A stretch of DNA of 63,099 bases, filler included, from Kipferlia bialata (taxonomy: Eukaryota), in assembly GCA_003568945.1 (NCBI GenBank). It is 4 parts of 4 records of this genome, joined end to end, with 100 filler letters (N's around TTAATTAATTAA, not from the genome) between each part and the next. Parts side by side here need not be neighbours in the genome. Positions count along the whole stretch, not along the records: positions 1 to 22,644 come from BDIP01000286.1; 3 more parts are not named here. One strand, written 5' to 3'. Position numbers and translations under genes: made by a program. Below, piece by piece: positions 1-54,771 of the stretch (positions are counted from its first letter, which is position 1; the number at the start of each line of letters is the position of its first letter). The notes below the pieces were generated by a model. It had not been told where the DNA came from, made no database searches, and worked only from the letters and a program-made list of their open reading frames with translations.

Positions 1-181
1 GAGTATGTATTCCTATATGCCACACTGGTGACCCGGAGGGTCACGCCGCACTAGTTGTGTAAACAAAGATTCTTCACATCCAAATATTCAACGGCATTCT
101 TCCAACCCGAGTATGTCATTTCTAGCATTGGTTACATCATACATATGTATAGGTATGCACATCATTCTTTCAACCCTCCAG

Positions 182-2406
182 GCGTTGTGATCAAGCTGTG
201 CTCTGTGGCCGATGTATACATCACTTATATACAACAATATATTGCATTAATATTTCTTTTGTAGACCCATATCATTCTGTCAACCCTAGGTGTAGTTATC
301 AAGCTGTGCTCTGTGGCCGATGTCTCAACAATATACCACCATCACTTCCTTATCTTTTAATAATGTGTGTATCTATCTATATCTAACTTCCAGGTGTAGT
401 TATCAAGCTGTGCTCTGTGGCCGATGGATGCACACCCCTGCACATCACAGCCGCAAAGGCCATCATGAACAGGTAACATATACCACAGTCATATACTTGT
501 CAGTATTCAAGTTCATAAGGAACTATTAGTTTCGCAACGCCCCTTATCCCCCCTCCGACTCACCCCCAGGGACCGTGACTCTAGATATGCCTTCAACCTG
601 GCCTTCTGGGACTACATTGGAAGGTATTGATTAGATGCTTGATAATATCCTACATATATTTCAAATCTATAAGCTATATGCATTCTGGGACTACATTGGA
701 AGGTGGGGTGGATACATGTTTCATGTATTGAAGACATTCGAAATTTTCCTGTATATACCCGCTGACCCCAGGATAGCCTCTGAGTCTGGCAGGAACATCA
801 GCAACACGCATACATACTATAAATACATGATATTATTAGTCATGATATACATGTTCTATTCTTTCTTACACTAGGATAGCCTCAGAGTCTGGCAGGAGCA
901 TCAGCAACACATATACATAAATACACATTAGAATACCATTATATTCAATCATGTACTATAGGATATCTGACTGTAGGATAGCCTCTGAGTCTGGCAGGAG
1001 CATTAGCAACACGGCCATCCTACTCGCACACCTGCTGGGACCAGGCAACAAGGGTATGTCATAGATAATACTTGGGGTGGTCCTTGGAGACCAATTTATA
1101 CTCTTCCCAATCGAGGTTTAGTCAATCTGTATATACCCAAGTATACGTCTGACACTCAGGCTCTGGTATCTCCTGGGGCGTTGTCAAGAAGGCACTGGGC
1201 CTCGGAGGGAAGGCACAGGTGAGGACAAGCGTAACATACCTTCCACACTCTATTCTCCGTCTTCCCCTCTCTATTCCTATCAGTAAATATTGTATGTACT
1301 GTCAGGTACTCACCCCAGGTCTGGTTTGACATTGTCCTCCTCACTCTGTTCACCGATATGTATATCTCTCTATGTATACATATTTATAGATTGATTGATA
1401 GATTTCTTCTACTCAACTAATTGATAGGTCTGGTTTGACATCGTCCTCCTGACCTTGTCCACCGATGTGACGTGCAATGGAGTAGATAGGGGTGCATGGG
1501 TGCAGCTCCTACAGCCCATCAAGGCGGTGGGGCACGAGCAGCTCATGAGGTATCACATGTAGTACAATTACATATATATGTATATATGTGTATACATATG
1601 AATATCAATATACTAAGAGGATACTATAGTGGTCTATCAAGGCGGTGGGGCACGAGCAGCTCATGAGGTATTGTATATATATATAACTAGTTGACCTCTA
1701 CAAATATTCACATATTCAACGAACACTATGGTCCGTGTTGCCTTGAAAACTCTGGCCCATATTCGTTAATAACCACACAAGTGTAACATATTTGGCATTC
1801 GTACAAATGCATGTGCACCCCCTCTGACCCCCAGAGAGTATGCCGAGATGACAGGCCATGGCAATGTGCCACTCGTCACAAGGTATGTATTGTAGTAGTC
1901 GATATCTATCTGAGTACCTGCACTATCTCTCTCCCTATATGCAAATTTGTATGAGCTCCTACAACAACATCATTTCTCATATGGTCTATATACACATCAT
2001 CTTATCCACTAGGATGGCCTCTGTGCTGCAGTCCCTGGTCAAGAGACTCAGGAGGAGGGACAGACAGGTGGGTACATGTATATTTGTACATATATACTAT
2101 ATGTGTATAATATATACTATGTATGTATGTATTGGTCGAGAGACTCAGGAGGAGGGACAGACAGGTATATATACATACATATATACTTGAGTTGTTTTCT
2201 AGGCCCTGCTCTGGCTTACCATAGCTGGCACTCTACGGATGCGTATGTATTACTATATATCTCCTATCCTTAACTAACCCCAGGCCCTGCTGTGTCTGAC
2301 CATAGCTCTCTCTCTCCCGTACTCTCTCTCTCTTTCTCTCTCTGTATAGCAGTGAAGTAATGTATCCTTACCCCAGGCCCTGCTGTGTCTCACTATTGCT
2401 GGCACT
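182..2406 (+). repeat. Intronic partial copies of adjacent exon ends (exon echoes) in the NOM1-like gene
   Basis: Exon-start copies at 182, 290, 772, 875, 1319, 2203, 2284 and 2377; exon-end copies at 680-702, 1636-1667 and 2133-2164. Confidence 0.95.
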
Positions 2407-2561
2407 CTACTTATATATATATACTATTGTATATCACCTCTCGTTCCTTACTCCAGGCCCTTCTCTGTCTCACTATTGCTGGCACCGACAGGGACAGAGC
2501 CATGGCCAGATTGACAGAGGTCAGGGAGGAGTGTCTAAGGCTAGGCAGGAAGGAGGAGTAG
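394..2561 (+). CDS. 3' part of an MA3-domain protein, most like NOM1/Sgd1 (nucleolar MIF4G/MA3 protein); 5' end lies outside the window
   Basis: Exons 394-472, 570-623, 977-1053, 1160-1218, 1428-1549, 1835-1882, 2013-2067, 2457-2561 splice in phase to VVIKLCSVADGCTPLHITAAKAIMNRDRDSRYAFNLAFWDYIGRIASESGRSISNTAILLAHLLGPGNKGSGISWGVV...ALLCLTIAGTDRDRAMARLTEVREECLRLGRKEE*. The F..(S/A).WD....SN...L.AHLL pattern and C-terminal position recall the NOM1 MA3 domain; CWC22 is the alternative. Confidence 0.6.
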
Positions 2562-3027
2562 AGAGACAGAGAGAGGGGAGAGGGTGAGACTCTGCTGGGA
2601 TGATGACTGGAGAGCTGGAGATTTCCAGGGTAGTATTCGATATGGGCCGTAATAGATCGTAGCCATGTTGGAATAGCGGGTGGAGACTTGTGGTAGTTGA
2701 TAGGGTTCCTCTAATATTCTCGATTGGGCATCAATATGATTCCGTCAGAGGGACGCATCCAATCTGATAACTCACTCTGGGAACAACGGTATATTACATA
2801 TTACTAAGACTCCTGGGAGTACATTGCCCATGACCACTTCCCAACACAAATTCAATAATATTGAATCAATATATTCTCAATGAGAATTTCTCATTCCAAT
2901 TTCATATTCCTTCTCAACACTCTCTCGTCAGAGGTGAGATAACACAGCAACGTACTCTCTGTAGTTGTTACTCACACACACTGTAAAGTCTGGCATCGTG
3001 ACCGATTCACACACTATATACACAAGT

Positions 3028-6017
3028 TCAGATGTCGACAGAGACCAAAGCGTTGTCCACTTGCCCCTCTAGTTCCCCTAGCCATCCCTCCAGTGTCTCC
3101 ACCACCTTGGTGATGTCTGCACCCACCCTCTGGGTCATGGGTTGGGTGATACGGACCTGGGAGTCAATAGTGCATAGTATATACACATGAGGATAATGAA
3201 TATATCTCTGGGTCACGGGCTGGGTATTCTGTACCCGGGGTCAATAGTGTATGGGATATATATATATACTACAATATATATACATATGCCCCCACCCTCT
3301 GGGTCATGGGCTGGGTGACACGGACCAAGAGGTCAGTGTTGTATATCACCTTGTTGGATATGTATACCATATAGGTGTGAGTATATGTATGTATAAATGG
3401 GTCATGGGCAGGGTGATACGGACCTGGGGGTAGGTATCGGAGATATACCTACAGACTGACAGGTGGTATGGTAGGTAGATGTATATACATAGGGAGATAC
3501 TAGTTATTGACTAAGAGATGTGCCCACCTGTCTCAGTAGGGGTAGAAGGTCAGTGTGGGAGGCAAGTGCCGGCACTCCTGCACCCTCAAAGCAGTATGCT
3601 AGACCCTCAATGTGCCACAGGGCGGAAGCGACATCAATGGGCACACTCATCATGTTTAGCATGTTGGGTGGTCCTCCTGGGTGTTAATAGTAACCACTGT
3701 ACATATATAGTATATATAGTATATACATATCTACTATTACCTATGGAATACTCAGTATACTGAATCATACCATACATTGGAAGGTATCATAATGGATATA
3801 TATCAATTAATTATTAATATGAATGGTATCCTATTAGGTAGTTGAGTTAAAGATTAGTAAACATATATCATCTCATATACTATATATCAGTTACATATAC
3901 ATATATACATATACCTGTCCCAGGCCGACCCTGTCTAAGAAGTGCATGTTGGCTGAAAGATACTTGATATATCATGTATAGGATGGATATATCATGTATA
4001 CGTATGGATATATATATATATATATATATACCTGGCTCAACCTGAGGCTCAGGCAGAGTGTCCAAGTGGTGCATGTTGGCGGAGATGTATAGGTAAATAT
4101 ACATATATATGTATAGTATAGATATATGTCAGTATAGTCTATACCTGTCCGTGGCTGACTGGCCCTGTCCAGGTGGTGCATTATGGCTGAGATATATGCA
4201 CTCAGTGCATCAAGGGAGGTATCAATGAGCAGGAGGGGGAAGACACTCCTGGAGGTGAGTGATACATATATATATATATATATATAATCATATGTACTTA
4301 GTATACGGGGAGAGGCATATGTAGAGGCATCAGTGAGCAGGAGACGGAAGACACTCCAAAAAGTATGAGAGTAGGTACTCAAAATTGTCAGAGATGTATG
4401 CTTTGGTGTGGGTAAAGTAGTGTTGTATATTCACTACATAGCAATGAGAGACGTTGGGTATATGTACCTACATGTGCCGCTTCAACCACTCCCACTTCTT
4501 CCATTTACCGTATATATATCGAATTGATATACAATATACTACTATACATACCTGTACCGCATCAGGTGGATCAGGGCCACGAAATTTTCTCTCGGGAAGT
4601 TGTTAGAGAGAAGACCTTGGTTGACCTTTGTCTGGTGTAACGAATATACGTATACGTATATAAGCATATATGTGGGGTGTGTATGATTCACTTTAGAACC
4701 CACCATAATGTCCTCTGTGACATCTGTCATCATCTGCATATTCATACATGTATACATACACTATATATTTCTTTGTATATGTTGTAGTTCTCACCATAAT
4801 GTCCTCTGTGACCTCGGTCATGACAGCCACCCTCTCTTGGTGGGAGAGAGAGAGAGGGGACTCACACACATGGGGGTCGAAGAGCCTAGGTCATTAGAGA
4901 GGTACATTATATGAGAGATATGTAACCAGAATTATCATACTATGTAATAGAGAGTAAGTAGTAACACATGTACTCACACACATGGGGGTCGAAGAGCCAG
5001 GTCATTAGTGGGGTATTGTACTAATACATATACTAATGGAGTCTGTATGTGGCGAGGAGGGGGGTGGGGTAATAGTATGAAACAGTATATGACGTGTGCT
5101 CTATGTATGTCGATAGGTATACATAATAGTGTATGACGTATGTCTACTCACCTGGTGCTAATCTCCATACTCTCACATGCAAGATGGGTGAAGAAGAGAA
5201 CCGAGTCAACCTCAGAACGGAGGTCGTTGCTATTACCACCAACAGCCTCAATTGTGCCAATACTCTGTGACATGTTCTCCAGGAGAGGCCTAACTGAGTG
5301 GTAGAAGCTATCGAATGAGCCCTCCATCATGGGACTGAAGACAGAGGAGACTTCACTGGGGTAAGATACAATGGTATATGCATATACATATATATCCTAT
5401 ATAGTGATAAGCACAATACATCACGGGGCTGAAGACGGAGGAGACATCGCTGGGGTGAGACTAAGTACACAGAGTGCAAAGAATAGTATAAATATATACC
5501 TTTACAATTCTCATATATTCCCCCTTTACAAGACACATACACACGTTGTAATTGAAGAAAGGATTGGGTTTGTACACCAGTATATACCTCGGCCACTGGC
5601 ACATACTCTCTATGAACCCAGCTGCAGCCAGTCTCTCTCTCTGAATCTGCTCCTGACCTCCATCAGATGCACTGTCCCAGTCTGGTATCAGTATCAGTAG
5701 TGCAATACACTATAATACTACCATGCTGATACTGATACTGATGCTAATACTGCTCCTGACATATATCAGTTACACTGTCCCAGTCTGGCATTAGCATGTA
5801 TAGCATGTGTATATATATGGAGGGAGTAATGGTGTTATATATCCTCAGCTTCACATAAAATCATCTCTATTAACATCTATGCACCTTGGATATATACATA
5901 GGAAGTAAATATGTATACATTAACATGTATGTAAATATGGGTATATATGTATGCCATACATTGTATGGTGTGTATACCTACACTCATCTTGGCCAGGATG
6001 GAGAGGAGCCACATGTG
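3028..6017 (-). CDS. Multi-exon protein of unknown function, probably alpha-helical; start not found
   Basis: In-phase GT-AG exons include 6017-5978 (HMWLLSILAKMSV), ~5682-5588 (DWDSASDGGQEQIQRERLAAAGFIESMCQWP), ~5355-5152, a short exon at ~4885, ~4732-4692, ~4631-4552, ~4247-4146, ~3675-3527 and 3156-3028 (VRITQPMTQRVGADITKVVETLEGWLGELEGQVDNALVSVDI*). No family recognised. Confidence 0.7.
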
Positions 6018-22644: not shown

Positions 22645-22744
22645 NNNNNNNNNNNNNNNNNNNNNNNNNNNNNNNNNNNNNNNNNNNNTTAATTAATTAA
22701 NNNNNNNNNNNNNNNNNNNNNNNNNNNNNNNNNNNNNNNNNNNN
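22645..22744. other. Assembly gap (N run with TTAATTAATTAA linker at 22689-22700)
   Basis: 44 N + 12-nt six-frame-stop linker + 44 N. Confidence 0.98.
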
Positions 22745-34365: not shown

Positions 34366-35505
34366 ATGCTTAGCCCAGAGGCAGAGGGGTTAGTCTCCGG
34401 CATCAACGGGGTCCGTCTCCTCCCCCTCCCCCAGGACACCCTCTCTCTCTCCCTGGAGCACCAGGCCAAGTACTTCCAGGTCGAGGAGTACAACGGGGAT
34501 GTGCGCAGTCTCTACAGACTTGCAGGTACTGTCATTGCCTGTGCTGATAGCATCCAGCTATCCCTGAGAGCGGTAGGGGATACAGTGGACATGGGTGTGT
34601 GTGAGGGTGTCCAGAGGGAGAGTCAGGCTCTGCTACAGACCCTGGCTAGACTAGCACCCCAGCAGAGAGAGGCACTGGAACTGGTCCGGGAGTACGAGGT
34701 AGGATAATATCTAGCTCTTTCTCTCTCTCTCTCTCTCTCTCTCCCTCTCCCGTCCTCTCTCTAGCACTGTATATATATGAACCTATATGCCTATTGTCCT
34801 AACCCTTAGGGGACCCCAACTGTCACCCCCTCTGACATTGAGTGCGCAGAGTATGATGTGTCTGTGGCAGAGGTGGCAGCTAGGAACCCAAGGTATACAT
34901 ATGTACATATACGTATATATATATATATGTGTGTGTGTATACATATACATACCGAGGAACATATGTATAACTGCGGTCACTGTGTATATATTGTGAATGA
35001 TGTATATGTATTGTGGGTAGAGTATGATGTACCTGATTGGGATACCCAAGGTGAGGGGACATATGGTATCTCTCTCTCAGTCATAATCTCAGATAATACT
35101 CTGTTCTCACCATTCTCTCCTCAATAACCCGCTATAGTGTTCATCTGATGCTTCGGATTGGTAGAGTATTTCCACACTCATCTGTGTGATACCTTTCCCA
35201 CCTATGGATGTGTACTATACCCATACGAACAACTGTATAATAAGATAGCTGCAGTCGCTCCCTTACCCGCCAGGCTTAGTGAGCAACAGAAGACACAGAG
35301 TGCCAGGCATGTCAGGGCACTCCAGAAGAAGGTGGTGTGCAGCCCCTTTAGTACAGTGTACATCTGTGTATTGGGCAGTATATGGAAACTGTACTGTCTA
35401 CTCCTACTAGACCCTCCACACCCTCTCCCTAACCATAGGTCAGTGACCTCAAGCGCTCCCAGGCCACTAGACAGAGACTTGCTGACAAGATGCGGCAGTT
35501 CCTAG
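34366..35505 (+). CDS. Hypothetical coiled-coil protein; 3' end uncertain (may extend to ~35790)
   Basis: Exon 34366-34698 (MLSPEAEGLVSG...LVREYE), then exons AVAPLPARLSEQQKTQSARHVRALQKK and VSDLKRSQATRQRLADKMRQFL with canonical splice sites. Confidence 0.55.
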
Positions 35506-36380
35506 GTGAGTGTGTTTGTGGGTCACACATGGTGTATATCATTATTTCCATCCCCGCAACCCAACCTTACCCTGTGGCATATTCCGTGTGTCTGTCTGCC
35601 ATACCCTCACCTATAGGATTTCTATTATCTTGACCATGTCCCACTAACACTCAGTCTTCCCCCCTGTGGCCTCTGCCCTGGGTGTATCCCCCACACCCCT
35701 AGAGGCAGAGGTAGTGGATGTCAACGGCACGGTGGGAATGATGGTCAAGAGAAGGGATATAGTAGTGCAGTCACAGTGCCCCCAATGACCTTGGGGAAAG
35801 ATATGAAAGAGTGTAGGTGGATGTATACATACATATACATAGAGTGATTGACACCGTGGACAATTGTTAGGGGGATGCCCCCAATGACCTTGGGGGTCAG
35901 TGGCTATAGTAGTGCATGTGGTCAATGGCACAGTGGGCATCATGTCATGATGGTCAAGGGAAGGGACGCACTGCAGTAGAGTGGGAATGACGTTCTTTAC
36001 ACCATGCAGGTCTTGTCTTCAGATGAGATACGGAGAGACAACGTGGCCGGCAAACGCATAACGAGAAATCTCTTTGTGACCCTCTTTCTTCACCGGAATA
36101 GATACACTCAATCGAAGGGAAGCACACTCTTGGTGGCAAGGGAACGTTCACACTGTAACAGTGCCACTCGATTACTGTCGATCAAGGAGTATATATGATA
36201 AGAATCAGAGTCTATGCTCAATCGTGTCTATTCCAGCATTGGTACTGTGAGGACCTCCCTTCCACATGGGAGTTCCATGTGGTTGCTGTCTGCAGCCAGT
36301 ATCTCCATGACGACACATTCCACCACACCCTATGCACCATACTATACACTGTACACTCCACACTCCCGCTGTGTCACCCC

Positions 36381-38353
36381 TCAGCATGGCACCGAGAGTG
36401 CCTCCCCAGGCTGGATGTCCCGCATGGCACGGAACGACTAGGGTGGGTGTGGTATCTGTGCTACACATGTATTATGAATCGATGCACTTGTGTATGTCAT
36501 TGCACGGAAGGACTAGGATTGGACAGAGATAGGCATGTGGGTTCAAAAGATAGCTCTAGTGGAGTAAAAACACCAAGGGTCCATTAGAATAGGCACAATA
36601 GGTAAGGTACTCAAATAGATCGATAGAGGGAAGCTGTGTATCTGACATCCACCCACCATCAGCCCAGTCTCTCCCTCCCAGTAGCAGTACAGAGTGGGGT
36701 CCTTCCTCACCCTTCTGCACAGGTGAGTCACAACAGGATATAATATAGTGACTAAGTATATAAACCAATCACAGTAATGATAATGGGACAACAGAAATGT
36801 ATCCATATTGCCTCGATATATGTTGTCTATTATCCAGACTGGGTCCTATTTCTGACTATCAGCCTGACTAATAGGTAGCATACACACACATACATATATA
36901 TAAATAGCTATATGTATGTCAACCACCTGAACCATGCTGCCATGAGACAGAAGCAGGACTCGTCGTCACAGGAGTAGGACTGGGGTTAGATAGTATGTAA
37001 CAGACAATGTAATACGCATTTGCATACACCATATGTATTATCAACGCCAGTAGACAGTATGATATGAACAGGAATATACTCATTAACATACACTATATAT
37101 TGTGTCAATGTCAGTAGTGGTTCTGGGGTCAAGGGAGATAGTGGCAACTGCAGTGGCAAAGCATAGCAGAATGAGCTAATGGTAGAAGGCTTCAATGTAG
37201 ATTACATGTAGTCCCCAATCCACATACAACATGAGTACATCTATACAAGAGTAGTAGAGAATATGCATAAACCAATGAATACACCGGAATACAATGTGCA
37301 CTGTATGCTCTCAGCCTCACACTCACGTCACGTGAGTTATACTGTTTGCCAACTCGTTGCCTACGCCTTGCACATTGGGTTTCTGAACTATAGTAAAACA
37401 TTATAGTAAATAGTTATAGTAAATATCCTCACATTTCTTCCCAGCATGTTGAGAATGCCCTTAACACTGGGCTCTTTCCCGTTATCCCTCTTGTAGATGT
37501 CCCACTCCTGCTTGCTGGGGTTAATAAGCCTAATAAAGGGGTAACGATTGAACCTAATGAGGGAAGAGGAATTCATTAGGGGTTATATCTGAATTATTAG
37601 GGGGGCATAATGGAGAACAGAGCTAGAGAGAGAGAGCAGGGAGGGGGGGAGAGACAAGGTGTGTTATTTTGTGTATACACCCACTGCTATGCCATTCCAC
37701 CCACCTGAGGCTGGATAGGTGGCCATATATACACACACACATATATATTCATACATAACCAACTATTATAATATATATGTACAAATATAATGTATCCTCT
37801 GTGACTCCCACCTGAGGCTGGACAGTAAGGGGTTTGGGGTGGGGGGGGGGGTAGGAGTCCTGTTTCACTGGAAAGAGTCCCTTGCTACATTATCCAACCC
37901 ACCTCAGCACAATGTTTCCCTTCTTGATGGCCTCCTGGTATTAGTATCAGTGTAAGTATTTGTATATATATATTCCATATTCTACATGGTACCTTGGCAT
38001 ACACCCCCCAGGCACTGTCAGTCTGATCAAGACGGACAGGCACTGGGTGAGATGGGCATAGAGTATATATATATATAATTAAGAAGGGAATCCTGTCGGT
38101 GCATACATGCACTCATATACCACTCATATATATATATATAAATATGACAAGGTGAGGGTGGGGACACACATGCTAAGGGACAGCTTGGCAGTTCAGAGAC
38201 ACAGTCTTACTGCACACACATATCAATGAGCACACCTGACAACACTATGGACCAGTTACCACCCACACACCCATGTTATCACATGACACCTGTACTGTCC
38301 TAACCTAGGTCTGTGGCTGTACCGACGGGTAGCCAGTGGGACGGGTATGCCAT
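36381..38353 (-). CDS. Small stand-alone SET-domain-fold protein (~130 aa) with a degenerate catalytic motif
   Basis: Exons 38353-38305, 38042-37993, 37934-37903, (optional 6-nt microexon), 37514-37433, 36979-36927, 36714-36657, 36437-36381 all splice in phase to MAYPSHWLPVGTATDLVPVRLDQTDSAWGVYAKEAIKKGNIVLS(LS)KQEWDIYKRDNGKEPSVKGILNMLGRNSYSCDDESCFCLMAAWFRRVRKDPTLYCYWEGETGLMSFRAMRDIQPGEALSVPC*. SET motifs WGVYAKEAIKKG and RAMRDIQPGEAL are present. Confidence 0.8.
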
Positions 38354-38854
38354 TGTACACAGTGCTGTGGAGAGTGTGAGACACGATTCACTCGAGTGAA
38401 CCCTTGGAGAGTTTTAAACGGTTCACTGCTAGACTGTTCATTGCTAGATCACTAGACCCTTTTCTCATCCCGTGGCTACTCTTGTCACAAGAGCTATTTT
38501 TACAGTTACAGCTCTTACACCATTTGCAGTCGAGAACTGAGGTAGATCTATCACAGTCTAGTCTTACAACACATCAGACTTGAATGATAGAGCCAATGTC
38601 ACACAATGATTTATATTCACACCACACTTGCACCCAACATGAGGGCACATACTCAACTGGTTAATTCTTGCTATTCTGACACACTATTCTGACACACACT
38701 GACTCTCCCTCTCCCTCTCTCTCAAAGAGACACACACACTCATTGAGTCTCTCTCTTACAGAGCTGACAGTGAATGTGAGTGTTTCGGTAACCTGAAACA
38801 TGACTTCTCTCTCCCTCTCTCTCCCTCTCTCTCTTCATGTCTCTCTCCCTCCAC

Positions 38855-41800
38855 CTATATAGTGAATGTGAAGTCCGTTGCTATCTGGAAGAGCCTGTCC
38901 CCGTATAGGAAGGAGGAGTTGACGAATTGGACACCGGGGACAAGGGGGAGGGGGATGCCGCCAATGACCTACTGATTAGTGTCAAAATATAGTAGGTCAT
39001 ACATGTAACAAGTGTTGTCAGGCTGGAGCCCAGAGGAAATAGGGGGACATATGTCTATACACCCATCTGTATATATACATGTATGTACATGCATTCCCAC
39101 CTCGAACAGGTCGTTCCAGAGAGGGATGATGACATACTCAAAGAGTACATCAATCACATCCCCTAGGCCTGACAGATCTATGCTGTCTGTGATGGTGTAG
39201 ACAGTGTCAAGGTCCATGTCCTAAAGTGGGTGGCATGTATATACTCAGTATACTATACTGACATATCAATATATGTATGGTGTATATACATTTACTATAT
39301 ATGTGTTCATGATGTAGACAGTGTCCAGGTCCATGTCCTGGGTATAAGTGGATACTTATATACAAATATGAATACTCTTTCACTGAATATTGTATACTGT
39401 ATCCTATATAGACTAGGCAAATAATTGTGTTGTGTTTTATATACTACAAATACTACATGTCAATGTGTAGACAGCATCCAGTTACATGTTCTTATGAGGA
39501 GTACTCGTGTTGCACACATTACACACTGTATACTCTATACTTGCATATCCATGATACAATATATATTGTGATATTCAATTGAATACACCAACCTCAAACT
39601 CAAACACGGCTGATATGAACACATCAGTGCTGTTTGACATCAGGAGGGGCTCCATAGAGAGCGCTGGGGTCAGATACATGGATACATATAGGTATATGTC
39701 AAGGGAGAGAAAGAGGTACAGGGTAGTGGCTGTTTGACATCAGGAGGGGCTCCATGGACAGGGCTGGGGTGAGGCATATATATGTGGATAGTACTATAGG
39801 GAGAGATAGAGATACTGCTTGAGGGCTCCATAGACAGGCCAAGAGAGAGTGATCTCCACAGAGTCAAGGATAGAGATATAGAGAGATACATAGAGAGAGA
39901 TACAAAGGGGGCATGTACCTTGGTGGAGATCGAAGATGGCAGAGTAGAAACATGGAGAGATATGTAGAGGAAGGGAATGTGGGATGTACATACCCAGGTG
40001 GAGGTCAAGGTCAAAAATGTCTGTCTGATACCTGGGGTGAGAGTGGTGTGTGTGTACTATTCTATTTCCGTCTGGCGAACAACGCGGCCCCATACCGCAT
40101 ATACATGGTATTATGGGAAACAGAGGAGTAATCCATGTACCAACTCTACAGAGTTTTATACCCATACCCGTCACATGCTATGGCTGATATGGTTGCATCT
40201 GCAGCGAGGTGCATTCCATCACTGTCGGAGAAGGACACAGTGGGGTACTCACTCGGCTCAAGCTGGGGTCATGTAACAACATGTATCATAACAAACATGC
40301 AACATGTATACACTCTATATCACTATACTATAGTCACTTGATGCTGATATCCGTACCTGCATGTAGAACTCCATGTCCTGGTCGGGGAAGATGTCCCTCA
40401 GGCCTGGCAGTAAGACGAATATACACATTGATGTATACCACGTGACAGTAAAAGACGAAGAGCTACATAATATAGCCTATAATACTATAGGGGCGTGCGT
40501 CCATACAACATGCATATATATGCCATGCAGCATACACTGTACCTGGCATGAACACAGCCAGTGACCGGATGGTCAGGGGCCACCACTTCTCCTGGGGGTG
40601 AGAGATACCGGAGTGAGAGAGTAGCAGTAGTTGATATATGGGTAGACAGGGTCAAATATACGACCTGGCGGCACTACTCCAGAAATAGAGTGTTTTATCA
40701 AAGACTAGCGCTATCTGATTACATATTTCGATTTAGTATGTTACCGACAGTATATATATACGGGTTACGTACGAAGTCTGCCTCGACATCTGCACTCTTG
40801 TGAATGCATACACATATGAGTACATAATATATACTATGTATACAAATGTATATACATTACACGTACGAAGTCTGCCCCGACGTCTGCGTTGGTGATGTTG
40901 AACCCAAGGACACCTGGGTATGAGGGAGAGTCAGAGTCAGAGTCAGCCAAGTGACATCAGGATACTTGTGCATATGAAAGAGAGGGAGAGATTGAGATAC
41001 AGAGAGACGTGCAAACTCTATTCCACCGAGAAATAGAGTGTCTCTCCTATGAAGAGGGGTATAGATACCCATCTACCTCTCTGCATGGAGATCATCCTAT
41101 ATATATATATATATGTATATATACTATATGTATACTACAATACACACTTGTACCTCTGTCTGTGGACAGTGCCAGTAGGGAGTTGGGCACATCCTCTGTG
41201 ATCACAAGCTGGGGGTTAGTAGGCAGTGCATTGGAAGCATAGAAGTATTTTGAGTATAGGTTCACCAGTCATAGGATAGGCCTGACGTAAAGAACTCACC
41301 TGAAATGATGTGACTTCCCCATCCGAAAGCGATACACATGCATATGTGTAGACAGCGAGTATGTATGTATATCACACCTGCAATGATGTGAAATCCCCGT
41401 CTGACAGTGTGTGTGGCACTATGGTCAGGGGATATACCCAGGAGGGATCGTCATACTGGCCGAACTGGCCCTGGGCATAGAGCGACAGGGAGTCTGGGGT
41501 GAGACAGAAGGAGAACATACAATCAGAAACACAATACATTGAACACATATGTATGAACACGTGTGTATTGTGGCCCTGGGCATAGTCTATGCTGCATAGA
41601 GCGACAGGGAGTCTGGGGTGGGAGAGGGGGGAAGAGAAATGAATAGAGTCCGGCGTGACCAGTAAGAGCTTTCTATCAATGACAGTACATATTGCAGTGT
41701 ATGTAACAGAATGCACCTGCTGTGACGACTGGGTCCCCTGTGAGGTAGAGGAAGATGTACTCCTCAGAGTCAATGGGGGCTACCTGGGGTAAGGGAGAAG

Positions 41801-44759
41801 GAGAGAGAGGGTCTAGGTACCTATTGTTCCCAGTGTGTAATAAGAGATACACATGTGTATATGCATACACTCCATAACCATTGTAGCCAGCGTGTCCTGG
41901 GATATATATACATTTATCTTCATAAGTCTCTTCAATATATATATATATATATGCCTACCCACCATGACCATTGTAGCCAGTGTGTCCTCTGATATGTCCA
42001 GAATGGCATCGGGGAGGGAGTCTTCGATGGAGTCCTGATGTCAGATATGTATGTATTCAATGGAATACAGAAATATATGGAATGAAATGCTGGGAGGAGA
42101 GGTATGGATGAAGAGTGTAGAGAGACAGAAAGAGAACTGTACATGATTCCATCGGGGAGGAAGCCCTCGATAGAGTAGCTATACGAGTAGTACACTCCTC
42201 GACAGAGTCGTTGATAGTCTACAGGCGCACAGATGTGAGTGTGTGTGTATATGTAGTATATGTAAGATATACATAATGTGTCTGCATCCCTACCTCGATT
42301 GAGTCCTTGATGGTACCCTCGCATGCATCTATCACTAGGTCATACAGCCAGCTGACAATGGAACCATGCATGTCGACGTCTGGGTGAGACGTGTACAGTA
42401 CAATAGATGAGATATATGTATTAGTACAATATGCTTCTATGGACCAACACATACCGACACCTGTGAGTGGGACGGAGAGAGCGGCGAATACTCTATATCA
42501 CGGTTAGTTATACAGAACACTTGCAAAACTTGTATAAGCAGAGTATGTAATATACAAGAGTATGTGTCAATGAATCAATACATGTCGACATCTGATGAAA
42601 GATTATGATACTAGCTCATACTAGCATTCGATGTGTAGATACTACACGGTGGCCCCACCTATGTTACCGACATCGGCATGAACATAGGGCACGTCCAGAT
42701 ACAGCTGGGGTGAGAGACAGTGAGTTCTCTACTATATAATATATACAATGCACTAGTATTACAAGAAAAACTGTATATATGTATATAAAACTGTATATAT
42801 GTATATAGATACACTCTAATACACCCACGCAAAGACACCTCTATATACAGCTGGGGTCATGTATACTTGGTGAGGGAGCTGTCTCGGCGTCTCCGAGTAG
42901 TATACACTGTATAGAGTGGAACCGCCAGTAGTGAGAAAGAACTCAGTCCGCTTACCTCACTCGAGTGGTCATGGAGACCAATCGTAACCATAGTGGTCAT
43001 TCATAGTTATGTATATATATGTGCATCTATACACATCGTACATGTTACTAGCTATACTATAAGAATGTATGGCTCTGTACCTCCCCCGAGTGATCATGGA
43101 GACCAATGGTGAGGCCGATTGCCACATCCTTGACCTTGAGGTCGGCGGATCTGACACGGTAAGGAGTTAACATATATGCTATGAAAAGCCCTATTTATAA
43201 TACATAATACTTATAATCCAATACATAAACATAATTATGCGGTCGTTGCTCAGTTATCCGTTAGTGGAATATATCCATTCAATGTATACCATAACGGTGA
43301 TTAGGCATGTACTTCATGTTCGACATATCGATACATATATACACACGGATTAATAGATATACAATGATGTATATCATGCGCATCTATACATATCATACCC
43401 GTGGTCTGACATGTACTTCATGCTCCATGCCCAGTCCATAGAGCCCTGGAAGGTGAGAGAGAGGGAGATAGGGTGAGGGATATATATATATATATATATA
43501 ATGTGAGAGAGGGATAGAGAGCGAGTCTGGCCCATAGAGCCCTGGTATGTGATATAGGGAGAGAAAGAGGGGGGGGGAGTTACAGAGGAAGTGATGACCA
43601 TACCTTCATTGTGAACCCTGAGATGTTGACACTGACACCTGGAATGTGAGAGGTGGATAGATCGAGAGGTCGATAGAGAGAGAGAGAGACAGAGAGGTGT
43701 TGACACTGACACCTGGAAGGTGAGATTAATTCACACAGGCAATGTGCATATATTCATGATATATACCATACGAAAACAGAAGTATGGATGATACTATATC
43801 ATACGCATATGTGCATATATATTGATACACGTACCCGTCTCACTGAACGATATTGCAAAGTGCCCCCAGTCTGTGACATTGATGTGGATGGAGGTGAGGT
43901 CAATGTCCACATGGCCTGGGGTCAGGGTGGGGTACACACACATATATTTATATATATAGATCAGTGTATGTGAATATATATATATATATATTTATATATA
44001 TATGTTAATATATGGTATGTGGATGGAGGTGAGGTAAATGTCCACGTGGCCTGTGTTAGCGTATACTAATACATGTCTCTACACTGATATATATTAACAT
44101 GTGAGAGAGAGAGGGGGGGGAGAAGGTGAGGTCAAGGTCCACATGGCATGGGGTCAGTGAACATGGATATATACATATCCATTCATGTATATACATATCT
44201 CAATACATTGGGGAGAGAAAGAAAGAGTAATGCAGAGGTCAATGTCCACATGGCATGGGGTCAGTGGAGAGTTTAGAGAGAGAATACATACAGTGGAGAG
44301 AGAGGGACATGTGGGAAAGAACGGGTGATAAACGGCCGGAGGAACATATGGAGAGAAGCAGACAGAGACGGGGGGAGAGAGAGAGAAGAAGGGAGGTAGA
44401 ACACGTGCATACTTGCCTTGGATGCAAGGTGGGGAACATAAGGAGGGATGCAGACAAAGAGAGACAGAATGAAGGAGAGCCTAAGGGTCCATGTCTATAC
44501 TGTCTAGGGTCCATGTATTGTGAAGTATCGTTACCTATGGGTGTGTCGACATGTGCCTCGTGGATGTCAGTGACAATACATTATATGTATGTATATATAT
44601 ATATATATACAATAATATATAGTCTCTCTACCTATGGGTGTGTCGACGTGTTTCTCGTGGATGTCAGGCACGGTGATGGAGGTGAAGGCCTTCTCAAGCC
44701 TAAGAAGATGAGTGAGAGATTAGAAGAGAGAGCAGAGAGACATAGAGAGAGAAATAGAG

Positions 44760-44795
<36 letters not shown>

Positions 44796-45205
44796 GTGAA
44801 GGCCTACTCAAACCTGAGGGTATAGAGAGAGAGAGAGAGAGAGAGATAGGGAGAGATTAAGAGACCGGAGTAAGAGAGAGTGAGAGAGAGTGAGAGAGAG
44901 TACTGACCCACATTGTCACTACTACCATCAGTATGGACGAAATTGAAATTGACACAAGTGTCACATTTCTCTTTTGATCCACACGCCATTGTATACAGAC
45001 ATAGAGTATTGGATCTTACATTATCTCAGAGAGAGAGAGAGAGAGAGAGAGAGACCACTCACACTGGGAGGAATGTGGCCTCGATATTCTCGATGGCTGC
45101 TATGTTGAGCGAGGTCAGGAAGCCACTGGGGGCCACGCTGCCCAGTGCGCCACACACATAGAGCAAGAGGGAAAGGACCAGGAGGGTGCATGCAGAGGAT
45201 GGCAT
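38855..45205 (-). CDS. BPI/LBP/CETP-family secreted protein, copy 2 (about 19-20 exons, echo-rich introns)
   Basis: Signal MPSSACTLLVLSLLLYVCGALG. Family-like segments ITVPDIHEKHVDTPIGHVDIDLTSIHI, GSMDWAWSMKYMSDHGSADLKV, DVDMHGSIVSWLYDLVID and QLVITEDVPNS. C-terminus IIPLWNDLFEVIGGIPLPLVPGVQFVNSSFLYGDRLFQIATDFTFTI* is typical of BPI/LBP. Confidence 0.88.
39310..44815 (-). repeat. Intronic exon echoes in BPI/LBP copy 2
   Basis: About 20 partial copies, e.g. at ~39310, 39463, 39729, 39818, 39916, 40765, 41298, 41593, 41868, 42142, 42953, 43290, 43525, 43693, 44019, 44125, 44235, 44533 and 44789. Confidence 0.92.
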
Positions 45206-45374: not shown

Positions 45375-45474
45375 NNNNNNNNNNNNNNNNNNNNNNNNNN
45401 NNNNNNNNNNNNNNNNNNTTAATTAATTAANNNNNNNNNNNNNNNNNNNNNNNNNNNNNNNNNNNNNNNNNNNN
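45375..45474. other. Assembly gap with TTAATTAATTAA linker
   Basis: N run with linker at 45419-45430. Confidence 0.98.
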
Positions 45475-54671: not shown

Positions 54672-54771
54672 NNNNNNNNNNNNNNNNNNNNNNNNNNNNN
54701 NNNNNNNNNNNNNNNTTAATTAATTAANNNNNNNNNNNNNNNNNNNNNNNNNNNNNNNNNNNNNNNNNNNN
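54672..54771. other. Assembly gap with TTAATTAATTAA linker
   Basis: N run with linker at 54716-54727. Confidence 0.98.

Follow-up and report, generated by a model that had tools for sequence, protein, structure and literature searches.

The window analyzed here, a 63,099-nt stretch of the genome of Kipferlia bialata, a single-celled, free-living fornicate, comprises four separate contigs joined by N spacers (22645-22744, 45375-45474 and 54672-54771), across which adjacency is meaningless. It contains three genes, denoted A, B and C, in which introns carry partial copies of the ends of neighboring exons, hereafter echoes; all three gene models have an open frame with GT-AG introns. Two public sequencing runs of one sample, represented by contigs only, were compared with positions 1-3660, that is, with gene A and a small part of gene B: a DNA run (X1) and a putative RNA run (X2), which is taken as RNA because its GT..AG joints are absent from X1. 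The K. bialata genome paper inferred diploidy from k-mers, and the available sections of that paper do not mention such repeats (PMC5874029).

Gene A (KIPB_001894), of which the 3' part lies in the window, is encoded on the plus strand by exons at 394-472, 570-623, 977-1053, 1160-1218, 1428-1549, 1835-1882, 2013-2067 and 2457-2561, defined by spliced joints and the open frame. A 40-residue exon matches KIPB_001894 at 100%, and the frame is identical to the database protein P0001 from residue 15 on. P0001 seems to begin with a predicted exon at 113-152, and an X2 contig runs from exon 394 off the contig; the contig end has likely produced an artefactual start in the P0001 annotation. The gene A product is likely NOM1/SGD1-like. 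A single relative, in Dysnectes, has a weak MIF4G match under the cut-off, and two protein searches returned no close relatives. At the contig start, inside a gene A intron, positions 14-55 form the end of a high-copy repeat: X1 depth reaches 32995 in the first bin, and several variant contigs stop at 55. With its hairpin at 28-44 and a CTAG that precedes a T, this stretch looks like a Helitron 3' end; the window contains no second copy of the repeat.

The other two genes lie on the minus strand. Gene B (6017-3028) is a hand-built model of 8 exons with 10 echoes, in which the last intron alone (3527-3157) is backed by a spliced joint. A metagenome scan with a gene B exon found no relative, and a scan with the neighboring gene found two distant loci (48% and 36%), which were left out of the analysis. 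Gene C (45205-38855; KIPB_001904), a member of the LBP/BPI/CETP family with 20 exons and 19 echoes, is matched by KIPB_001904 in its first exon, is identical over the whole model to the database protein P0005, and has Pfam PF01273 and PF02886 matches above the cut-off. No Pfam match was obtained for gene A, for one gene B exon or for three short gene C exons.

Partial exon copies at splice boundaries

The original prediction described copies of exon starts, each preceded by AG, upstream in the introns of gene A, and copies of exon ends, each followed by GT, downstream. Every one of these copies was recovered with its dinucleotide in place. The eight acceptor echoes (plus strand) lie at 182-214 (three silent changes) and 290-322 (zero mismatches) for the exon at 394; at 772-808 and 875-910 for the exon at 977; at 1319-1360 for the exon at 1428 (four silent and two replacement changes); and, for the exon at 2457, at 2203-2231 (far), 2284-2307 (middle; all five changes silent, the copy continuing into a CT microsatellite) and 2377-2405 (near). 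The three donor echoes, also on the plus strand, are those of exons 570-623 (680-702), 1428-1549 (1636-1667, zero mismatches) and 2013-2067 (2133-2164). The spacing had been put at 80-120 nt, and the gene A units measure 79-118 nt. As had also been predicted, the pattern recurs in two other genes. Exon-versus-intron alignment places the gene B echoes at 5784-5750, 5449-5419, 4997-4972, 4730-4704, 4356-4324, 4090-4059, 3962-3929, 3423-3398, 3325-3287 and 3234-3206, and the 19 of gene C between 44813 and 39309, all on the minus strand.

Altogether, 40 echoes occur on 29 of the 67 exon boundaries of the three genes, nearly half of the edges, in families with a copy number of 1-3; these counts, like all echo counts given here, apply to this one window and not to the genome as a whole. 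Acceptor echoes (27, AG kept in 19) outnumber donor echoes (13, GT kept in 8). An echo comprises 16-42 nt of exon edge and, together with about 50-100 nt of intron, makes up one unit; unit lengths are 74-135 nt, and spacers 48-101 nt, in 37 of the 40 cases each.

Three further observations were made on gene C and its surroundings (minus strand). Two echoes of one exon, 44254 and 44147, have lost their acceptor through an identical change, AG to AT, which indicates that an already dead unit was itself repeated. At 35888-35850, 3 kb away, a 39-nt copy of the start of the last exon follows an acceptor-like site, and 99 nt beyond it comes another partial copy; this is the remnant of a related gene, with its own echo. 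Finally, four residues are repeated in frame across one intron, at the end of exon 8 (42305-42294) and the start of exon 9 (42034-42023), possibly a boundary duplication that was recruited into the coding sequence, the course envisaged when mirages are taken as a source of new introns.

The attachment of the copies to exon boundaries was assessed by aligning 36 exons to their adjacent introns, with 1157 non-adjacent exon/intron pairs from the window as the null. Adjacent introns yielded 43 matches scoring at least 22, a score reached by 31 of the 1157 non-adjacent pairs (maximum 31); of the 43, we kept 40; two weak unanchored matches were discarded, as was the match to the latter half of an interrupted echo. 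Thirty-five matches score at least 28, the 99.9th percentile of the null being 28.5. Of these, 24 lie upstream: 22 have their first position no more than 2 nt from the exon start, and none extends to the exon end. The other 11 lie downstream: 9 have their last position no more than 2 nt from the exon end, and none begins at the exon start. Anchoring at the expected end of the exon, to within 2 nt, thus holds for 31 of 35 (mean chance 0.058), far above chance, and the recurrent, boundary-anchored pattern that had been proposed holds within the window. An unbiased scan for local direct repeats found 44 pairs in the window, of which, read by eye, 40 belong to echo families, two to the remnant at 35.7-36.0 kb, and two are unanchored. 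In the nine other 5-kb bins, no echoes were found at 125 acceptor-like and 170 donor-like sites, as defined by motif. The echoes are confined to 1-5800 and 35500-45000, two AT-richer regions that both lie at contig ends.

The strict polarity stood up (0/24 and 0/11 matches at the opposite exon end) and lost its status as a sign of a special process: any duplication across one splice site would give it, others being purged, so we regard it as uninformative on mechanism. Echo length and exon length are not significantly correlated (rho 0.19, p=0.23), which fits a mechanistic cap and selection alike. Intron-only duplications occur in 4 of 33 introns, two of them in echo families and one a microsatellite; this, too, fits anchoring and fast decay alike.

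Echoes in genomic DNA and their absence from spliced transcripts

X1 contigs match positions 29-1665 with zero differences and break only at two exact repeats longer than the 31-mer. One unbranched unitig of 1151 nt (397-1547, no differences) crosses four echoes plus their exons at a depth of 420, against 412-438 for its neighbors, and an X2 contig (2039-2483) crosses four more. Tandem mis-assembly of alleles, an outcome that the original prediction had named as fatal to it, is accordingly barely credible: the comparison used short-read contigs and X1 may be the source of the assembled DNA, but a separate read assembly matches base for base at ordinary depth, the second run has contigs over further echoes, and collapsed alleles offer no path from mid-exon into the intron.

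All seven internal introns of gene A are seen as spliced joints in X2 (472>570, 623>977, 1053>1160, 1218>1428, 1549>1835, 1882>2013 and 2067>2457). These joints and the one in gene B, eight of eight, skip the echoes and take the site nearest the exon body, and neither a joint at an echo site nor echo letters were found in the X2 contigs, which drop rare forms. With a score matrix trained on the real sites of the three genes, 12 of 27 echo acceptors and 4 of 10 echo donors equal or outscore their real counterparts. This position-based choice suggests exon definition, in which the two splice sites flanking an exon are recognized as a pair. According to the portion of PMC2397502 available, most protists follow intron definition, and exon definition prevails in animals, with amphioxus an extreme case. 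The Kipferlia lineage has a reduced spliceosome, with 87 of 174 proteins (PMC6679479).

Unspliced X2 contigs cover the 3' half of gene A (1191-2736, with 1191-2483 within), and their depth climbs from 53 to 176 toward the convergent, deeper-covered gene B. This signal reflects either intron retention or antisense read-through; retention in X2 is also seen at the echo-free intron 1883-2012.

Intron flanks, codon changes and the origin of the units

That similarity stops at the splice site is largely correct, except that identity of 0.56 versus 0.36 persists at -10 to -6 before the site, with background level beyond. The mean score of 37 echo intron flanks is 5.0, compared with 2.0 for unrelated flanks and 32-59 for simulated one-step self-duplicates, and the five mismatch-free echoes have flank scores of -3 to 17; the near-site residual homology is small (mean z 0.62, p=3e-4). 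The claim that each copy has a different spacer needs a refinement as well: some same-family spacers prove faintly homologous (13 same-family versus 312 other pairs, p=0.024), aligning at about 60-65%. The faint flank trace implies that the flanks are either homologous but deeply diverged, or replaced. Because the first and second codon positions of echoes differ by 6.9%, the intron part of a unit that arose by a single copying step would be expected to retain ~87% identity, and plain one-step tandem duplication at equal mutation rates is therefore ruled out by the flank scores, in agreement with the original prediction on this point.

The intron tails and exon parts of the units appear to form mosaics, in a few cases. 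Echo 290 is identical to the exon, yet its tail scores 30 against the tail of echo 182 (99th percentile of the null, 25.5) and only 10 against that of the real exon, and echo 3234 has the most exon mismatches, yet the tail nearest to the real one; in all, 3 of 40 tail pairs exceed the 99th percentile of the null. Coupling between echo divergence and flank score is not significant (rho -0.24, p=0.15). Several multi-echo families share common junctions, as judged by eye (exon 394, exon 977 and two of the three copies at 2457). In composition, introns (37% GC, 17% dinucleotide repeats) differ from echoes (54% GC, 2%), and microsatellites extend from echo ends at 2308 and 44788. Spacers finish in good acceptor motifs; no donor-like motif was detected at acceptor-echo ends (p=0.93), nor an acceptor-like motif in the sequence before donor echoes (p=0.78). 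Lacking the partner splice motif, spacers are half-introns rather than complete introns.

The mismatches within echoes comprise 67 silent and 57 replacement changes (pN/pS 0.25). Counted once per family, third-position changes make up 60 of 111, above the neutral expectation (p=6e-6); against the ceiling reachable by self-duplication with a neutral echo, the same share gives p=0.054-0.19, so that the silent bias does not clearly appear to exceed that ceiling. Stops account for 3 of 52 replacement changes. Replacement changes were no more conservative than random ones (p=0.36-0.66). A paralogous source was rejected for the one partial paralog of gene C that was compared, KIPB_008090: none of 14 diagnostic codons in the echoes match it, and 11 match the host gene C.

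The interpretation that we favor, with chances that we consider evenly balanced, is that mirage-like units are built or refreshed by exon-anchored recombination between alleles with divergent introns. The partner copies, likely strongly diverged alleles unseen in the sampled strain, would have introns that are almost unalignable, so that recombination would find a grip on the exon-derived stretch only. An out-of-register or one-sided exchange within the exon would add a unit whose intron part comes from the diverged copy, displacing the earlier splice site, together with its exon edge, into the intron. Later misaligned exchange or conversion between exon and echo might add further copies of the unit with an identical junction and also overwrite the echo with coding sequence while the spacers go on diverging. 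Selection would retain only units that span a single splice site, thereby fixing polarity and size, and echoes would be tolerated through exon-definition pairing of sites, unusual in protists to judge from the available part of PMC2397502. The echoes themselves are likely by-products without function.

Allele exchange is favored by the contrast between mismatch-free echoes and their almost unrelated flanks, by the mosaic units and by the silent bias; in addition, the near-site flank homology fits homologous, diverged introns and not random ones, and the common junctions in multi-echo families fit repetition of units by misaligned exchange. As described in the accessible text of PMC4209137, crossovers concentrate in exons in the hypervariable Schizophyllum commune, and unequal crossing-over is proposed for amphioxus mirages in the available text of PMC3087553. 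Metamonads lack NHEJ and have lost Rad51A while keeping two Dmc1, according to the part of PMC8516963 at hand, and likely rely on homologous repair. Exchange between diverged haplotypes, one candidate of the original prediction, thus fits the best reading, but slippage-prone introns and the absent donor weigh against it: no second allele (at least 85%) was seen at gene A, where X1 depth stays at 420.5 throughout 489-1342 and no alternative letters occur. Nor did a donor emerge from the protein searches with gene A or from the paralog of gene C, the codon changes lie close to the self-duplication ceiling, and the mosaic pattern involves few units. A related account, which we advance only tentatively, is recurrent splice-site replacement, in which a diverged allele in certain chromosome regions would repeatedly donate an intron end plus exon edge, one-sidedly; the displaced site would be left behind, and the intron would become a stacked record of earlier alleles.

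That the echoes are instead ordinary mirages, produced when ~100 nt spanning a single splice site duplicate locally, seems less likely to us, though it is a serious rival. Slippage would then scramble the AT- and repeat-rich intron part much faster than the GC-rich echo, with or without occasional conversion by the exon on the same chromosome. Polarity and size then follow from geometry and selection alone, the codon pattern is attainable if the echo is neutral and the exon drifts silently, the repeat content of introns and the microsatellites at echo ends betray slippage, some spacers of the same family still align, and no donor allele is seen at gene A. Such decay, however, requires on average a ~3-fold substitution rate and many indels, and a far higher rate beside the five mismatch-free echoes; a uniform fast clock fails at echo 290, whose tail stayed like that of the older 182 while the newest tail is unrelated, and the intron parts of amphioxus mirages align well in the portion of PMC3087553 available (supplement 4). 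Intron ends might also be replaced by a half-intron from an unrelated gene, or by a mobile intron, whose insertion duplicates a long target at the exon edge. This would explain the spacer length, close to that of a typical intron, the good acceptor motifs in which spacers terminate and the flanks, most of which score like unrelated introns; it is improbable given that the spacers are not whole introns, form no family within the window and have flanks slightly likest their own site. A functional role, as alternative or mutually exclusive exon parts or as direct repeats that mediate DNA excision, programmed or frequent, and thereby convert an echo into coding sequence, is very improbable. The silent bias, the retained AG and GT dinucleotides and the unspliced X2 contigs over 1191-2483 might be read in its favor, but the X2 contigs lack echo-site joints and echo letters, the X1 contigs lack unit deletions, the partner splice site is missing, stops, lost AG/GT and random replacements are present, and the echo-free intron is retained as well.

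These structures matter in several respects. The combination of a fresh exon part with an unrelated intron part means that the rival mechanisms predict different outcomes genome-wide and in a second isolate, and echo-free genes adjoining echo genes serve as built-in controls. Echoes are also natural tests of splice-site competition, in which equal or stronger sites lose to the one nearest the exon. By swelling introns from under 100 to 200-700 nt, they can mislead gene prediction and short-read mapping. If splice-site replacement is true, it would explain the origin of mirages in very polymorphic genomes generally, imply past outcrossing or hybridization together with exon-definition splicing in a metamonad, and provide a route of intron growth in 100-nt steps.

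Amphioxus mirages and other comparable systems

In ciliate-type pointer excision, DNA molecules without one repeat plus spacer arise and the joined form is expressed. Pointer-like excision, another candidate of the original prediction, finds no support in the contigs, whose resolution does not extend to rare forms or to the two exact repeats of at least 31 nt: no X1 joint deletes a unit, and X2 contigs contain no echo letters. Mutually exclusive tandem exons, each with an acceptor and a donor and each expressed in mRNA, do not fit: echo copies lack one of the two splice sites and are absent from X2 joints. Introner elements are intron insertions with target duplications; insertion of this type finds no donor motif at spacer starts and no acceptor motif at donor-spacer ends. 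The Rogers model posits intron gain through tandem duplication (as cited in the available text of PMC3087553). Both resemble the echoes in that the duplication involves splice signals, but in Kipferlia introns lengthen and none is newly made, and the spacers form no whole-intron family within the window.

Schizophyllum commune resembles the mechanism proposed here in that recombination of diverged genomes is confined to conserved exonic stretches; unlike it, the crossovers are in register, no boundary duplications appear in the part of PMC4209137 available, and high diversity was measured in Schizophyllum only. The minisatellite in intron 7 of human F7, as described in the accessible part of PMC1557585, consists of repeats of an exon/donor boundary in which functional pseudo-donors are silent and the exon-adjoining site is used. 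It shares with the echoes boundary-spanning repeats and the success of the site nearest the exon, but involves one donor and 37-bp near-identical VNTR units, with no acceptor copies or diverged spacers reported in that part of the source.

The original prediction knew of no described system with this architecture, yet amphioxus mirages match it in kind. In the available portions of PMC3087553 and PMC3902484, mirages are tandem copies of 5' and 3' intron/exon boundaries in the genes for Adh3, the globins BflGb6 and BflGb9, troponin C and PGBD5; splicing is undisturbed, and their origin is stated as unclear in PMC3087553, a question for which Kipferlia offers dozens of separate cases. Our literature search, which left out most subscription papers, found no description of echoes in Kipferlia or any non-animal nuclear genome. 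Like echoes, mirages are boundary-spanning tandem copies at both 5' and 3' sites, many with AG or GT, that keep normal splicing. They differ in that the whole 150-160-nt unit of the BflGb6 mirage, intron included, is 81-100% identical, with an exon part of ~100 nt (PMC3087553, in the text available), whereas a Kipferlia echo has only 16-42 nt of exon, its intron part scores near background and the host is a metamonad. Amphioxus mirages are further marked by copy-number polymorphism between haplotypes and by somatic instability; the Kipferlia contigs represent one sample. Echoes thus share three mirage features, namely tandem copies of boundaries, both types of site and intact splicing, and lack the likeness of whole units; they work like mirages but are not typical members.
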